Shown here: positions 1,945 to 11,263 of the stretch, piece by piece
Numbering within the stretch: the first letter of the stretch is position 1
How the letters are laid out: each line of letters begins with the position of its first letter
Virus genome (UHGV): UHGV-0198005
Length of the DNA: 12,292 nucleotides
Strand: one strand, 5' to 3'
From: a virus
The notes under the pieces: generated by a model
The model's input: the letters and a program-made list of their open reading frames with translations, nothing else
The model's database searches: none
What the model was told of the DNA's origin: nothing
Program-made: the position numbers and the translations under genes

Positions 1945-1970
1945 CGGGTATCACAGATATGACAAACACG

Positions 1971-2003
1971 AAAAAAGCGGCCCCGATATGGAGCCGCCTT
2001 TCT
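1971..2003. terminator. Bidirectional intrinsic terminator (GCGGC-N11-GCCGC), strongest for minus-strand transcripts (A6 on the plus strand = T6 on minus)
   Basis: Hairpin 1977-1997 flanked by AAAAAA upstream and CTTTCT downstream, located between convergent alpA (+) and the minus-strand operon ending at 2093. Confidence 0.5.
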
Positions 2004-2092
2004 GAACAATTAACCCGCTGCGCCTTATGTGTATATGATCCCAAACATAAGCACGGGGATGATAGCCGCTATCAGGCTGGTGGGCAATGCAA

Positions 2093-2281
2093 TCAGTCTG
2101 GTTCAGTTCGTTGCCATACCTGCAATGAGCGCTTTTCCCTGTATTCTTTAAGGAATTGCTCAAGGGCAAAAGCACATGGCGCGAATCTTTCTGATTCATG
2201 CTCTATCTTTCTGCGCCGTCTTTTCCGTGCCGGTGATAATGTTTTGGTCAATTCTTTATCGGTCATTGTGTTGTCCTGCAT
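2093..2281 (-). CDS. Hypothetical small basic protein (62 aa), second gene of the minus-strand regulator operon
   Basis: ORF lies 42 bp downstream of the RHH-like gene on the same strand and is followed by the terminator at ~1971-1997. Arginine-rich stretch SPARKRRRRK. No clear ribosome-binding site. Confidence 0.35.
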   Translation of the reverse strand: MQDNTMTDKELTKTLSPARKRRRRKIEHESERFAPCAFALEQFLKEYREKRSLQVWQRTEPD

Positions 2282-2323
2282 AGCAATGCGCCGTAATACC
2301 TTACACCACGGCGCTGATGGTGA

Positions 2324-2629
2324 TTACTCTGGTTCTTTGGTCTTGCGGCGCTGGAGTTCTTCACGTGCGACAGTGACGAGCTGCCCGATCTCCTCGGCGG
2401 CTTTGATTCCGAGTTTTTCCACCTGCGCCAGTGCATCGTGCGAAGAAATCAGGGGGTTTTCTCCGCTTCCTTCTGCCTGGCGGCGGGCGATTTCACCGCG
2501 CATGGCGGTTACTATGAATCCGGCGTTGCTTTCACCGTCCAGTTTTACGGATTCCATGCCTTCAATAACATCATGCGGGATCCGAGCTGTCAGTGATTGT
2601 GATTTTGCGTTTTTTGAACCTGTAGCCAT
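2324..2629 (-). CDS. Ribbon-helix-helix-like DNA-binding protein, candidate island repressor/regulator
   Basis: ATG at 2629 preceded by GAGAGGA; the ORF track's upstream TTG at 2644 is less likely. N-terminal SQSLTARIPHDVIEGMESVKLDG fits the RHH beta-strand/helix pattern (inference from motif, not searched). Divergent from the rightward operon across an operator-rich region. Confidence 0.6.
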   Translation of the reverse strand: MATGSKNAKSQSLTARIPHDVIEGMESVKLDGESNAGFIVTAMRGEIARRQAEGSGENPLISSHDALAQVEKLGIKAAEEIGQLVTVAREELQRRKTKEPE

Positions 2630-2644
2630 CTGTAATCCTCTCAA

Positions 2645-2825
2645 TGAAAGTGTAAGACAATATACACATAAAAAGTCTTACATAAAAGCATTGACATGTA
2701 AGCCACCTATAAATAAAGTTACTTACACCTTGTTAATGCAAGGTGCAGAAACGACGAAACCCCGCACTGTAGGAGCAGTAACGGGGCTTCTAACCACCAA
2801 CGATAGCAAGATTATCGAGGCAGCT
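2645..2825. promoter_or_regulatory. Divergent control region: two similar operators built from TGTAAG half-sites (O1 2651-2682, O2 2697-2728), sigma70-like promoter (TTGACA 2691-2696, 17 bp, TAAAGT 2714-2719) reading rightward, plus IR CACCTTG-N6-CAAGGTG
   Basis: Half-sites and promoter hexamers read directly in the sequence; the arrangement is classic for a repressor-controlled lytic-type operon. Confidence 0.5.
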
Positions 2826-3026
2826 ATGAGAAATTATACCATACACCCGCAAGGGCGGGACTCGTACAACCTGAATAAATACATCTGGCGTTTTATCGCC
2901 CTGAGCACGGCACAACCGCGCGTGATTACCATCGAGGCCACCAGCGAACAGGAAGCGCGTCAGCAATCTCCGGCTGGCTGCGTGATGGTATTTGCTGCCC
3001 GTATTCGTCAGGGGGTAGGCTTATGA
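2826..3026 (+). CDS. Hypothetical protein (66 aa), first gene of the rightward operon
   Basis: GAGG 5 nt upstream of the ATG at 2826; stop overlaps the next start (ATGA). It is the only protein-like part of the otherwise spurious 355-aa ORF 1959-3026. Confidence 0.45.
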   Translation: MRNYTIHPQGRDSYNLNKYIWRFIALSTAQPRVITIEATSEQEARQQSPAGCVMVFAARIRQGVGL

Positions 3027-3918: not shown

Positions 3919-4218
3919 ATGAAACTTAAATATTCTGGCTTAACTGCCAGTGGCAACACTCACCCTAAATTTACGCGCGGCGATATTTACCGCGACCAGT
4001 ACGGCGGCACGGTAATGATTAAGGGCGTGGCGGGACGGTGCGTAACTTACCGCCGTGAAGGTTACGAATATGATTGCGTGATGCCTGTTTATCAGTTCCG
4101 GCGTGATTTTTCTCTGGTACAGACCGCGCCGCATAACGTGCCCACCAGCAACGCCAGGGCACGGGCAAACATCCAGAAGCTGAAAACCATGATTAACGGA
4201 TTCAGGGGTAAAAAATGA
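3919..4218 (+). CDS. Hypothetical protein (99 aa)
   Basis: ORF with GGAG upstream; stop overlaps the primase start (ATGA). Confidence 0.6.
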   Translation: MKLKYSGLTASGNTHPKFTRGDIYRDQYGGTVMIKGVAGRCVTYRREGYEYDCVMPVYQFRRDFSLVQTAPHNVPTSNARARANIQKLKTMINGFRGKK

Positions 4219-5969
4219 AACTGGCACCGAACGTAAAACAGCAGTCACGCGGCATAAAACACAAAGGAACAGAAGTCATTATTTTTGCGGGTAGTGATGC
4301 CTGGGCACACGCGAAACAATGGCAGGAACATGATGCGCGTATGGCCGGAGATAATGAGCCTCCTGTGTGGCTTGGGGAGCAGCAGTTATCAGAACTGGAT
4401 AAGCTGCAAATTGTGCCGGAAGGCAGAAAATCCGTGCGCATATTCAGGGCCGGATATCTTGCGCCAGTAATGATAAAGGCGATTGGTCAGAAGCTGGCGG
4501 CGGCAGGCGTACAGGATGCAAATTTTTACCCTGATGGTATGCACGGTCAGAAGGTGGAGAACTGGCGCGAATATCTGGCCCGTGAGCGCCAGAATCTTTC
4601 TGATGGTCTGGTCATTGAGCTTCCGGTAAAGCAAAAGGCGCAACTTTCGCAGATGGCGGACAGTGAGCGCGCGCAGCTGCTTGCCGATCGCTTTGATGGC
4701 GTTTGCGTACATCCTGAAAGTGAAATCGTTCACGTATGGCGCGGCGGGGTATGGTGTCCGGTCAGCACAATGGAACTTAGCCGCGAAATGGTGGCGATCT
4801 ATTCAGAGCACAGGGCCACTTTCAGCAAGCGCGTAATCAATAACGCCGTGGAAGCGTTAAAAGTTATTGCCGAACCAATGGGCGAGCCGTCCGGCGATTT
4901 GCTGCCGTTCGCCAATGGTGCGCTTGACCTGAAAACGGGGGAATTTTCCCCGCACACGCCGGAGAACTGGATCACCACGCACAACGGCATTGAGTACACG
5001 CCACCAGCACCAGGGGAGAACATCCGCGATAACGCGCCAAACTTTCATAAATGGCTTGAGCACGCAGCCGGAAAAGACCCGCGCAAGATGATGCGTATAT
5101 GTGCCGCGCTGTACATGATTATGGCGAACCGGTACGACTGGCAGATGTTTATTGAGGCCACCGGAGACGGCGGGAGCGGTAAAAGTACATTCACACACAT
5201 AGCCAGCCTTCTGGCAGGGAAACAAAACACGGTAAGCGCTGAAATGACATCGCTTGATGATGCTGGTGGGCGTGCGCAGGTTGTCGGGAGTCGTCTTATC
5301 GTCCTGGCAGACCAGCCGAAATATACAGGCGAAGGAACGGGCATCAAGAAAATCACGGGCGGCGACCCCGTGGAAATTAACCCGAAATATGAAAAGCGTT
5401 TTACGGCGGTAATCAGGGCGGTGGTGCTGGCAACCAATAACAATCCGATGATATTCACCGAACGGGCCGGAGGTGTGGCACGTCGTCGGGTGATATTCCG
5501 GTTCGATAACATCGTAAGCGAGGCAGAAAAAGACAGGGAGCTACCGGAAAAGATCGCGGCTGAAATCCCTGTCATTATCCGCCGCTTGCTGGCGAACTTT
5601 GCCGACCCTGAAAAGGCACGGGCTTTACTCATTGAACAGCGTGACGGTGATGAAGCACTGGCAATAAAGCAACAGACGGATCCGGTTATTGAGTTTTGCC
5701 AGTTCCTGAATTTTCTGGAGGAAGCACGCGGCCTGATGATGGGCGGCGGTGGCGATTCAGTGAAGTACACGACCAGAAACAGCCTTTACCGCGTCTATCT
5801 GGCGTTTATGGCGTACGCAGGCAGGAGCAAACCGCTAAACGTAAATGACTTTGGCAAGGCTATGAAGCCAGCCGCGAAAGTTTACGGACATGAATATATT
5901 ACGCGGAAAGTTAAAGGAGTAACGCAGACTAACGCAATAACAACAGACGATTGCGACGCGTTTTTATAA
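4215..5969 (+). CDS. Replication initiator: primase/helicase with phage-plasmid primase P4-family (D5_N-like) region and P-loop NTPase domain
   Basis: 584-aa ORF. Walker A GDGGSGKST (EATGDGGSGKSTFTHIASLLAG) and a putative Walker B LIVLAD; upstream NGALDLKTGEFSPHTPENWIT resembles the D5_N/primase-C motif. Immediately followed by an iteron array. Confidence 0.85.
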   Translation: MKLAPNVKQQSRGIKHKGTEVIIFAGSDAWAHAKQWQEHDARMAGDNEPPVWLGEQQLSELDKLQIVPEGRKSVRIFRAGYLAPVMIKAIGQKLAAAGVQDANFYPDGMHGQKVENWREYLARERQNLSDGLVIELPVKQKAQLSQMADSERAQLLADRFDGVCVHPESEIVHVWRGGVWCPVSTMELSREMVAIYSEHRATFSKRVINNAVEALKVIAEPMGEPSGDLLPFANGALDLKTGEFSPHTPENWITTHNGIEYTPPAPGENIRDNAPNFHKWLEHAAGKDPRKMMRICAALYMIMANRYDWQMFIEATGDGGSGKSTFTHIASLLAGKQNTVSAEMTSLDDAGGRAQVVGSRLIVLADQPKYTGEGTGIKKITGGDPVEINPKYEKRFTAVIRAVVLATNNNPMIFTERAGGVARRRVIFRFDNIVSEAEKDRELPEKIAAEIPVIIRRLLANFADPEKARALLIEQRDGDEALAIKQQTDPVIEFCQFLNFLEEARGLMMGGGGDSVKYTTRNSLYRVYLAFMAYAGRSKPLNVNDFGKAMKPAAKVYGHEYITRKVKGVTQTNAITTDDCDAFL

Positions 5970-5982
5970 TTTGTTGCAATGG

Positions 5983-6208
5983 CTGTCTACCCTGTCTACC
6001 TGAGTAAAGAAAAATACATTTAATTCAGTGCATTAAGTTAGGTAGATAGCCTTTTTTTACTGTCTACCCACTATCTACCCTCTCTACCTGATTTTACCTG
6101 AATCAGACAGGGAGGTAGACACGGGGTAGATAGTGGATAAAAGCACTCTACCCCGCTGAAAGCCGCGCCATTACTGGCATGAGGGCCACTAAGGTAGATA
6201 GGTAGACA
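5983..6208. repeat. Iteron-type replication origin: at least 11 copies of an 8-9 bp motif (C)TGTCTACC / GGTAGACA(G) and variants in both orientations around an AT-rich core
   Basis: Copies read directly at 5983-5991, 5992-6000, 6041-6049, 6060-6068, 6071-6079, 6081-6088, 6114-6121, 6125-6133, 6146-6155, 6193-6200, 6201-6208; AT-rich stretch 6001-6040. Placement directly 3' of the primase gene matches P4/PICI ori organisation. Confidence 0.7.
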
Positions 6209-6256
6209 AGGGGAGGCACAACTCAAAACTTTTTAAACGAGGGGGTAAAAATAAAT

Positions 6257-6535
6257 ATGCACACTTCAGGGAAATTTAATAAATCACTCAAAAAACGCAG
6301 AGACAGAACAGAACCGAAATATCGCGCGTTAGACATGACAGAGCACGCTTTAAAGGTGGCAATCAGAACGATAGACCGACACGTAGGGGAAGGATACGCG
6401 AAGGAACATCCCGACCTGATAAGCGCATTCATGACCACAGCAGCGGCAAACTTTGCCACGCTGACAGAACGGGAGATTGCCGAAGCGGAACAGGTAACAA
6501 CCATCAACGTTAAAACCGGAGAGGTGGAATCATGA
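6257..6535 (+). CDS. Hypothetical protein (92 aa), co-transcribed with ssb
   Basis: GAGGGGG ribosome-binding site ~11 nt upstream; stop overlaps the ssb start (ATGA). Confidence 0.6.
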   Translation: MHTSGKFNKSLKKRRDRTEPKYRALDMTEHALKVAIRTIDRHVGEGYAKEHPDLISAFMTTAAANFATLTEREIAEAEQVTTINVKTGEVES

Positions 6536-6954
6536 CAGCACAGATAGCCGCTTACGGGCGGCTGGTGGACGACCCGCAGGTAAAACAGACCAGCAAGGGC
6601 ACACCGATGACGCTGGCGCGTATGGCGGTCCCCCTTCCGTGCAGCCAGGCAGATGACGGAACGGCGACGATGTGGTTATCCGTCCTGGCATTTGGCAGAC
6701 AGGCCGAAGCACTGGAAAGGCACCGCAAGGGTGAACTCCTGAGCGTGGCGGGTAACATGCAGATCAGCCAGTGGACTGGGCAGAACGGAGAAACGCGGCA
6801 GGGCTGGCAGGTTATCGCAGACAGTGTAATCAGTGCGCGAACGGCGCGACTGGGCGGCAAAAAAGGTCAACAGGGCCAGGCTACTGACGCGCTGAACAGG
6901 GCAAAACAACAGGCGGGGAATGATGATCCGTACGGGGATAACATACCGTTTTAA
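6532..6954 (+). CDS. ssb: Single-stranded DNA-binding protein (SSB) homolog
   Basis: 140-aa ORF with an OB-fold-like N-terminal region, a Gly/Gln-rich linker and an acidic C-terminal tip DDPYGDNIPF, matching the conserved SSB tail (D-D-D-I-P-F in E. coli SSB, recalled). Confidence 0.8.
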   Translation: MTAQIAAYGRLVDDPQVKQTSKGTPMTLARMAVPLPCSQADDGTATMWLSVLAFGRQAEALERHRKGELLSVAGNMQISQWTGQNGETRQGWQVIADSVISARTARLGGKKGQQGQATDALNRAKQQAGNDDPYGDNIPF

Positions 6955-6968
6955 GCGACGAGTGACAG

Positions 6969-6992
6969 AAGCCGGAGCAATCCGGCTTTTTT
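6969..6992 (+). terminator. Rho-independent terminator (AAGCCGGA-GCAA-TCCGGCTT + T6)
   Basis: 8-bp stem, tetraloop and T-run 15 bp after the ssb stop. Confidence 0.65.
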
Positions 6993-9609: not shown

Positions 9610-10152
9610 ATGAAATCGCACCTGATGAACAAAAAAAACATGGCGAAAAGCTGCCGTGTAAGTGCGACAGCGTTCGACAAGTGGGGAGTGACTCCCGTTG
9701 AACGTAAAGGCCGTGAGGCGTTTTACGATGTTGCCAGCGTGATAGACAATAGGGTTAACAATGCAATTAGCCAGCTTACAAACGACAAAGGCGATATTGA
9801 TGATGATGAACTCTTACGAGTCAGGATCAGATTACTGACAGCACAGGCGGAGGCGCAGGAACTTAAAAACGAGCGCGATCGCGGTGACGTGATTGATACT
9901 GAGTTTTGCCTGTACGCGCTTTCAAAGCTGGCGAGTCAGATTTCATCAATCATGGACAGCCTCCCGCTTACTATGCAAAGGAGCTTCCCACAGATTACCC
10001 CCGCCATGCTGGATAGGCTTAAAAGGGAAGTGGTTAAAGCCTGTAATGCCAGTGCCAGAGTTGCCGACAACCTCCCACAGATACTGGCTGATTACTTGAA
10101 AGAAACAACCGGAAACGTACCGGAAAAGTTGCTACAGAAGAAAGGCGAGTAA
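9610..10152 (+). CDS. Terminase small subunit homolog, lambda Nu1-like (candidate Rpp-type packaging-redirection protein); true start may be the ATG at 9625
   Basis: LTAQAEAQELKNERDRGDVIDTEFCLYALSKLASQISSIMDSLPLTMQRSFPQ aligns with recalled lambda Nu1 LTRAQADAQELKNARDSAEVVETAFCTFVLSRIAGEIASILDGLPLSVQRRFPE; N-terminus MNKKNMAKS.. parallels Nu1 MEVNKKQLADIF. No large-terminase gene follows. Confidence 0.85.
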   Translation: MKSHLMNKKNMAKSCRVSATAFDKWGVTPVERKGREAFYDVASVIDNRVNNAISQLTNDKGDIDDDELLRVRIRLLTAQAEAQELKNERDRGDVIDTEFCLYALSKLASQISSIMDSLPLTMQRSFPQITPAMLDRLKREVVKACNASARVADNLPQILADYLKETTGNVPEKLLQKKGE

Positions 10153-10408: not shown

Positions 10409-10582
10409 ATGACAGAAGCCGAAATACTGGGATTAATCCGCCGTGCTGGTGGAATCAGCCAGCAGACTGACGAACAGGCCACGCAGCCGGACAGCGTGAC
10501 AGCCGAAAATTATGCGCGTGTTGTTGCTGAGGTGATGCGCCGTGATGGTATCCAGCTTAATGATGTGGATATGCGTTCTTGA
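10409..10582 (+). CDS. Hypothetical small ORF (57 aa), weakly supported
   Basis: ATG-initiated ORF below the ORF-track size cutoff with only a weak GGTG upstream; acidic, helical composition. May be a remnant. Confidence 0.25.
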   Translation: MTEAEILGLIRRAGGISQQTDEQATQPDSVTAENYARVVAEVMRRDGIQLNDVDMRS

Positions 10583-10890: not shown

Positions 10891-11263
10891 CAAAGCGCAA
10901 AATTGCGCTGGCTGGTGGGCATGATGCCGATATGGTGATCCCCATAACGGAAATATCCACCAGCACGGCAACGGCAGAATAGCCACAACACAGAAAAACC
11001 ACGAATATGGGGTTTTTGTTATGGCATGGGCATGATGACCGCCCCTGCTCTGAATGGTGGAAATCACCACGCAGATCATCCACCAGCTTCGTTTTTATAA
11101 ATTAAACATCCGGGAAAATCCGACCCTGAATTGTGCATTTTTTCAGCAAATCATTTTAGTTATACGTTTGGTTATACGGTTTAAAAGTTGAATCATATAC
11201 ATTATTTTAAATCATGAAGTTACACGCTCAATTAAACTACTCTCGTGGACCAAAAATCCCAAG

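Follow-up and report, generated by a model that had tools for sequence, protein, structure and literature searches.

The 12,292-nt virus genome UHGV-0198005, referred to here as the window (the whole stretch of DNA that was analysed), carries on its + strand the gene for a Pri-Rep initiator/helicase and, directly 3' of it, a cluster of short repeats (iterons) in both orientations. A preliminary description of this DNA had proposed the cluster as a satellite replication origin bound by its own initiator. The replication locus comprises the following features, with conservation given for the nine relatives introduced below.

4215-5969, + strand: Pri-Rep initiator/helicase gene, 584 aa (Pfam D5_N, DUF5906, Pox_D5)
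5983-6000, + strand: iterons 1-2, CTGTCTACC twice at 9-bp spacing, directed at the AT-rich stretch; cores kept in 9/9 and 8/9 relatives
6001-6040, no strand: AT-rich spacer, a probable DNA unwinding element (low GC, stability minimum)
6041-6049, - strand: iteron 3, CTATCTACC, convergent with iterons 1-2 over the AT-rich stretch; in all relatives, with a 1-nt shift in some
6060-6088, + strand: iterons 4-6, CTGTCTACC, CTATCTACC and CTCTCTACC, at spacings of 11 and 9 bp
6114-6133, - strand: iterons 7-8, GTGTCTACC and CTATCTACC, forming an imperfect palindrome with iterons 5-6
6144-6152, + strand: iteron 9, CACTCTACC; core kept in 9/9 relatives
6154-6178, + strand: conserved non-iteron G+C-rich block CGCTGAAAGCCGCGCCATTACTGGC, common to other replicon types
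6193-6209, - strand: iterons 10-11, CTATCTACC and TTGTCTACC; cores kept in 9/9 relatives
6225-6238, + strand: conserved AAAACTTTTTAAAC, shortly before the ribosome-binding site of the gene that follows and inside the ori fragment tested in a sibling island; 93% of columns invariant

The TCTACC cluster and its conservation

Counted on both strands, the hexamer TCTACC occurs 11 times in the window, and every copy falls within 5986-6206, six on the + strand (5986, 5995, 6063, 6074, 6083 and 6147) and five on the - strand (6041, 6114, 6125, 6193 and 6201). The expectation over the whole window is 2.7 copies, and 11 copies were reached in none of 200 shuffles. The preliminary description had counted at least eleven copies of an 8-9-bp motif in both orientations; the number and the orientations hold, whereas it is the hexamer that is conserved, with variable bases at the three positions 5' of it. 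When CTRTCTACC was searched with up to one mismatch, 10 of the 14 window matches lay inside the cluster, the eleventh copy beyond these 9-mer matches being CACTCTACC at 6144-6152. The first iteron stands 14 nt 3' of the stop codon of the replication gene (5967-5969), as expected from the earlier placement of the cluster immediately behind that gene.

The orientations of the copies in order are + + | AT-rich | - + + + - - + - -. Between copies 2 and 3, the AT-rich stretch at 6001-6040 (38-40 bp, 23-25% GC) is the local duplex stability minimum of the region, at -33 kcal/mol where the window averages -42.6 (sd 3.7). Its length and composition agree with the ~40-bp AT-rich stretch that the copies had been said to flank, but the arrangement is asymmetric, with two iterons on one side and nine on the other, and just one inverted iteron directly abuts its right side. 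The cluster is better read as three convergent units, at 5983-6049 (+ + | AT | -), 6060-6133 (+ + + | 25 nt | - -) and 6144-6209 (+ | 40 nt | - -). In the middle unit, iterons 5-6 and 7-8 form an imperfect palindrome with 16-nt arms (6065-6080 and 6124-6139) that are 94% complementary. When 6055-6140 is folded as a single strand, either strand gives z = -4.8, well beyond what shuffled sequences reach.

Conservation was assessed by aligning the intergenic regions of nine relatives, which show 81-100% DNA identity across the final 570 nt of rep and the origin. Across the 66 iteron-core columns, 80% are invariant, compared with 14% of the intergenic columns that belong neither to a core nor to the G+C-rich block, and seven of the 11 cores are intact in at least eight of the nine sequences. 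The AT-rich spacer retains its length (38-39 bp) and low GC content (13-29%) while its sequence drifts. The hexamer cores are therefore far more conserved than the DNA around them, which we report as new, and this conservation pins the functional unit to TCTACC. The bases 5' of the hexamer vary by lineage (CTRTCTACC, CCCTCTACC or TTRTCTACC), the identity of the Rep C-terminus being 100-92%, 84% and 60% for these three variants in turn. The C-terminal 100 residues of Rep are 84-100% identical in the nine relatives and 60% identical in a tenth, more distant one; covariation of the 5' flank of the iterons with C-terminal Rep specificity was considered, but because the two track each other only loosely it is not claimed.

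Other candidate elements in the region were assessed. Between iterons 8 and 9, AGTGGATAA (6132-6140), the sole 9-mer resembling a DnaA box, matches the complement of such a box at 8/9 positions; it is confined to the lineage of the window and CFT073 and was rejected as a conserved element. Rfam gave no meaningful match, whether the whole window was searched at gathering scores or 6100-6260 at relaxed E-values. A classical iteron plasmid origin of the Rep_3/RepA kind (17-22-bp direct iterons, DnaA boxes and an AT-rich unwinding element, upstream of rep) was likewise discarded, as the window iterons are of 6-9 bp, in both orientations and downstream of rep. In a more distant relative, E. coli PapRG-04-4 (L011 2359-2675), the two halves of the origin are swapped, such that the match to 6114-6240 precedes the match to 5983-6090, and the swapped origin is followed by a pseudogene of a RepA-family helicase without its N-terminus. 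This arrangement suggests that two satellite replicons recombined inside the origin.

The host island and its sibling EcCICFT073

From end to end, the window shares 99.9% identity with an island that E. coli Nissle 1917, ATCC 25922 and related strains carry in their chromosomes between yejM and narP; its integrase gene begins 217 nt past a tRNA-Pro gene. This element is listed as the phage-inducible chromosomal island (PICI) EcCIATCC25922 (CP009072.1 106749-118031, att in yejM-luxR) in Table S1 of Fillol-Salom et al. 2018 (PMC6092414). The window maps to CP009072.1 106836-119144, and attR repeats resembling the listed att sequence lie at window positions 11159-11178.

Its sibling EcCICFT073, taken here from the CFT073 chromosome (L002, 7930 to about 19000), belongs to the same island family and shares the gene order, 582 of the 584 Pri-Rep residues and an origin region of 98% DNA identity, in which all 11 TCTACC cores are in register. 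About nine substitutions separate the two origins, along with one 1-bp indel that falls between iterons 10 and 11, which are spaced 8 bp apart in the window and 9 bp apart in EcCICFT073. The islands also differ in integration site (roxA-phoQ in EcCICFT073, yejM-narP in the window island) and in packaging module, an unrelated 144-aa protein (L002 17659-18093) standing where the window island has the small terminase subunit TerS (phrog_57, 9610-10152). The two siblings combine a common replicon with distinct packaging modules.

In the published work, a thermosensitive plasmid carrying pri-rep and ori of EcCICFT073 yielded colonies at the restrictive temperature, a rep mutant yielded zero colonies, and deletion of ori significantly reduced colony numbers (PMC6092414, Fig. 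2b). We mapped the primer table of that study onto the window: the delta-ori construct ends at GCGACGCGTTTTTATAATTTG (5953-5973) and the pri-ori construct about 20 nt into the next gene, near 6280, such that the tested 'ori' corresponds to window 5974-6280 and encompasses the whole cluster. This test is essentially the experiment that the preliminary description had proposed, but with the initiator supplied in cis, and its outcome in a 98%-identical sibling bears out the claim of a satellite origin adjoining its own initiator gene. Given that the iteron cluster is statistically unambiguous, that the sibling was tested on plasmids and that the cores are conserved in relatives, 5983-6209 is very probably the vegetative replication origin of EcCIATCC25922, which is also present in Nissle 1917. 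The feature itself is already known, as a catalogued PICI origin experimentally validated in its sibling.

A number of points weigh against this assignment. The experiments concern the sibling sequence, about nine positions and one 1-bp indel away from the window origin, and the loss of ori in PMC6092414 reduced colony numbers 'significantly' rather than abolishing them. No published demonstration that an E. coli PICI Rep binds TCTACC was found in the literature examined. The AT-rich stretch is off-centre, with two iterons against nine.

The remaining gene content of the island, all on the + strand, consists of an integrase, an AlpA/excisionase-like protein, small proteins including a DUF4222 protein, Rep, a 92-aa protein, a single-stranded DNA-binding protein (SSB), capsid-E-like and head-decoration proteins and a small terminase subunit. 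The order int - alpA - pri-rep - ori - morphogenesis/packaging, the size of about 11-12 kb, the dedicated att and the common + strand are those of Gram-negative PICIs.

1-1242, + strand: integrase
1738-1944, + strand: AlpA/excisionase-like
6257-6954, + strand: 92-aa protein (phrog_1231, unknown function) and SSB (140 aa), the downstream genes of the replication module

A 17-bp deletion near position 10575 is the sole difference from Nissle 1917 and ATCC 25922 in 12.3 kb; it lies in the open reading frame (ORF) at 10409-10582 and reduces phrog_1561, a protein of 93 aa with unknown function, to 57 aa. The best 41 matches listed (H16-H56), at 12,303-12,311 bases, exceed the window by 11-19 bases, consistent with the lack of a deletion there. 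A 355-aa ORF at 1959-3026 has no Pfam match; in the RefSeq annotation of Nissle 1917 this interval is not one gene, but carries fragments resembling Icd, one of them a pseudogene, and a YlcI/YnfO gene in antisense.

The initiator, its relatives and rival explanations

Residues 1-140 of Pri-Rep are Toprim-like and are followed by D5_N, a DUF5906 P-loop superfamily 3 (SF3) helicase core and a C-terminal Pox_D5/winged-helix region. At the level of sequence, the protein thus has the SF3 helicase and C-terminal winged helix characteristic of PICI and Staphylococcus aureus pathogenicity island (SaPI) Reps. Residues 141-573 share 41% identity with residues 324-756 of P4 alpha, its helicase and origin-binding part, and residues 194-432 match the SaPI5 PriRep helicase (PDB 7OLA, E 4e-15 over 240 aa). 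Residues 488-576 match PDB 1KA8 (E 1e-6), an entry labelled 'putative P4-specific DNA primase', which we take to be the winged-helix origin-binding domain of P4 alpha of Yeo et al. 2002.

The ~320-aa primase region of P4 alpha appears to be missing from Rep, and the N-terminus of Rep has a Toprim-like fold in which the canonical acidic motifs are missing, which we report as new. The 'primase' part of E. coli PICI Pri-Rep looks like a Toprim remnant without catalytic acidic residues, and the earlier label of 'primase-helicase' would be a name only. This remnant raises the question of who primes island replication. The N-terminal module of Rep was also found fused to AAA_25 (RepA-like) helicases in other islands. 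The published account describes Pri-Rep as distantly homologous to alpha, with four Pri-Rep alleles among E. coli PICIs (PMC6092414).

The P4 type I iteron given in the preliminary description, TGTTCACC, agrees with the P4 GenBank record, in which sixteen type 1 repeats with this consensus are annotated. Neither TGTTCACC nor GGTGAACA occurs in the window, and TCTACC does not occur in P4. The window octamer TGTCTACC shares six of eight bases with TGTTCACC and differs in the two central ones, upholding the proposal of a specificity group distinct from that of P4. The relation offers a candidate for a simple two-base specificity switch between homologous winged-helix domains. In both elements, AT-rich spacers of 35-40 bp lie between iterons of both orientations, and the window cluster lies directly 3' of the gene, like crr of P4. 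Unlike the window island, with its single cluster, P4 needs two iteron-bearing cis sites (ori and crr); window Rep appears to lack the alpha-type primase region, and a plasmid state, as in P4, is not known for PICIs.

SaPI origins consist of 6-12 penta- or hexanucleotide iterons directly downstream of rep, opposed on either side of an AT-rich centre, and SaPI Reps bind their iterons through a winged helix, bind and melt DNA independently of ATP and load themselves (PMC9371898). Judged by its sequence, the window module appears to fit this description throughout, with 11 iterons of a hexanucleotide core and at least two opposed iterons on each side of the AT-rich region, although asymmetrically so. 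It shares with SaPIbov1, SaPI1 and SaPI5 an origin immediately 3' of rep, short iterons, an AT-rich region and, by homology, a self-loading SF3-type helicase with a winged helix. The window module differs in its unrelated iteron sequence, in the off-centre position of its AT-rich region (2 + 9) and in a helicase core that is only a distant relative of that in 7OLA; the SaPIs, for their part, have Gram-positive hosts and encode Pri either as a gene of its own or as a real primase domain. We conclude that the origin probably works like those of P4 and the SaPIs and shares ancestry with the helicase/origin-binding module of P4 alpha, while falling outside the P4 specificity group.

From these relationships a sequence of events can be proposed. 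After induction by a helper phage and excision, Pri-Rep would be made from the gene immediately upstream of the origin, and its C-terminal winged-helix domain, homologous to the origin-binding domain of P4 alpha, would bind the eleven TCTACC iterons. The convergent iteron sets would place Rep oligomers on both sides of 6001-6040, where the AT-rich stretch would melt, and Rep would then itself serve as the SF3-type replicative helicase, a role demonstrated for SaPI Reps. The island SSB, encoded just downstream, would coat the opened strands. Since the Rep N-terminus appears to be no more than a Toprim-like remnant, priming might tentatively be assigned to the host DnaG.

Three other explanations of the repeats were weighed. 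The cluster could be a cis-acting replication enhancer like P4 crr, with initiation elsewhere; its position recalls crr (4291-4590), which lies immediately downstream of alpha (4636-6969) while the true P4 ori is 4.5 kb away, and Rep is homologous to alpha. Yet all 11 TCTACC copies from int to attR are in the one cluster, and a second cluster, as in the P4 pairing of ori and crr, was found nowhere in the island between these limits, leaving no second iteron site available as ori. Moreover, pri-rep and this segment alone suffice for plasmid replication in the sibling (PMC6092414), and we consider an enhancer with a remote origin very unlikely.

Iterons of plasmids commonly have a dual role in replication and regulation, and the repeats here could be mainly operators by which Rep, or some other protein of the island, controls the downstream operon or the copy number (for example by handcuffing), with replication secondary. 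Iterons 10-11 and the conserved AAAACTTTTTAAAC do lie within 65 nt of the next gene start. However, scans of 5800-6400 detected neither a sigma-70-like promoter nor an intrinsic terminator, Gram-negative PICIs are described as a single rightward transcription unit (PMC6092414), and deletion of the segment impairs replication itself. A primarily regulatory cluster is accordingly just as improbable as a remote origin, though the cluster may have a regulatory role on top of origin function. Nothing but the shortness of the motif speaks for chance or low-complexity repeats without function, whereas none of the shuffles reached 11 copies and the hexamers are fixed in position in diverged relatives whose flanking bases drift. 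This conservation already refutes chance, the probability of which we regard as negligible. The reading of 5983-6209 as the vegetative origin is the one retained below.

A G+C-rich block shared with other origins

Within the origin, columns 6157-6183, around the G+C-rich block, are 78% invariant in the nine relatives, in contrast to 14% of the other non-iteron columns. The block (consensus about GCTGNAAGCCGCGCCATTNCTGG) also occurs at L012 1501-1525, L013 2501-2529 and L017 about 480-505, and in L014-L016 and L018-L161. This 25-nt block is the only part of the locus that might be new.

In the phages JEP4 and Stx2a-981509, the block is found 25/25 identical, on the opposite strand, inside gene O. 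Of the 105 phage records with a match, most match at 24/25 positions and 74 fall in the 95-99% identity band; among the phage rows listed, many have no annotation at this stretch, and where it is annotated the gene is usually O or a 'replication protein'. Lambdoid O-gene origins with the block at 24-25 of 25 positions include those of JEP4, HK75, HK633, mEpX2, IME10 and many Stx2a phages. In JEP4 the block falls exactly between two groups of four 12-nt repeats, with an AT-rich stretch and a palindrome beside it, as lambdoid origins are usually laid out. Phage lambda itself lacks the block in both its O gene and its origin.

A 26/29 match occurs in the oriR of the P1-like SJ46 group, between a GATC-rich region and a direct-repeat array just upstream of repA, and this array occupies the position of the RepA iterons in P7 oriR. 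In P7, the G+C-rich spacer of the annotated oriR contains GCAGGCCGCGCCACGTCTGGCC, a diverged version of the block. The G+C-rich stretch of P1 is reportedly a spacer of critical length that tolerates changes of sequence. Both the initiators (O, RepA) and the iterons of these lambdoid and P1-type origins are completely unlike those of the PICI. In small plasmids, the block adjoins rep genes. Among complete E. coli genomes, 889 of 5426 carry the block, with 87 of 996 places on plasmids; the 40 rows sampled comprised chromosomal sites without annotation (PICI origins among them), replication genes of prophages and plasmids of ~100 kb.

A scan of IMG/VR with the 16-mer GCCGCGCCATTNCTGG returned at least 120 matches in 63 flank families. 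Ten of these families also match at least four of the five bases of the upstream CTGNAA, which lies outside the search pattern, where about one would be expected under uniform base frequencies. In the families inspected, the motif lies mostly among family-specific repeats, and the genes overlapping or adjoining it encode Phage_rep_O, AAA_25 helicase, Prim-Pol/PriCT_2, DUF5906/Pox_D5 helicase and DUF3987 proteins. The proportion of IMG/VR matches whose flanks share a 10-mer or longer was 0.40 with the extended motif against 0.26 for presumed chance matches; as this statistic separates poorly, the repeat-array context rests on inspection of individual families. The search patterns also bias the core positions of the block, and part of the evidence for it is inspection rather than statistics.

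With one genome per species, the 22-mer CTGNAAGCCGCGCCATTNCTGG gave 24 stretches against a rough chance estimate of 1-2, in Pseudomonas, Stutzerimonas, Burkholderiales, Thauera, Zoogloea and others. Several have local flanking repeats and adjoining VapE-like, DUF927 or integrase genes; others adjoin ordinary genes (ribBA, lon and an MCP gene). In two IMG/VR contigs, L088 (about 10611) and L134 (about 634), the 16-mer core lies ~40 nt from a 3' fragment of tRNA-Pro, and in L088 it is also 95 nt from an integrase-like ORF. This placement is that of an att region, has no visible repeat array and does not fit an origin-only picture of the block.

Known elements did not account for the block. Compared by eye with their consensus sequences, it fits no sigma-54, sigma-32, IHF, LexA, KorB, dif, Ter or gyrase site. 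A 15/18 look-alike near cos of P4 is one arm of an 8-bp G+C hairpin and is probably unrelated. No published description was found with the sequence string, which retrieved unrelated primers only, or with keywords for P1 oriR and G+C-rich regions. According to a 2016 review, what G+C-rich flanks do in origins 'has remained unclear'.

In the recognizable origins the block stands within or beside a repeat array, and in the three replicons compared for orientation the AT-rich stretch is 5' of it. Its neighbours extend to AAA_25, Prim-Pol, DUF3987, VapE and DUF927 genes, in Enterobacteria and apparently other Proteobacteria. It is possible, though we hold this tentatively and think it less probable than its opposite, that the block is an undescribed functional module common to origins whose initiators are unrelated (Pri-Rep in PICIs, O in lambdoid phages and RepA in P1-like elements). 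The block could act as a torsional clamp, as a site for a conserved host factor or as a preferred site of priming, for which it holds two CTG, the template triplet of DnaG; alternatively, it could be left over from an exchange of modules.

Overall, little is at stake in the origin itself, which re-identifies the published and experimentally supported origin of a catalogued island. The block, if real, may mark a common host requirement of many mobile-element origins, and would be useful for predicting origins and for understanding the competition between satellites and their helper phages for replication.
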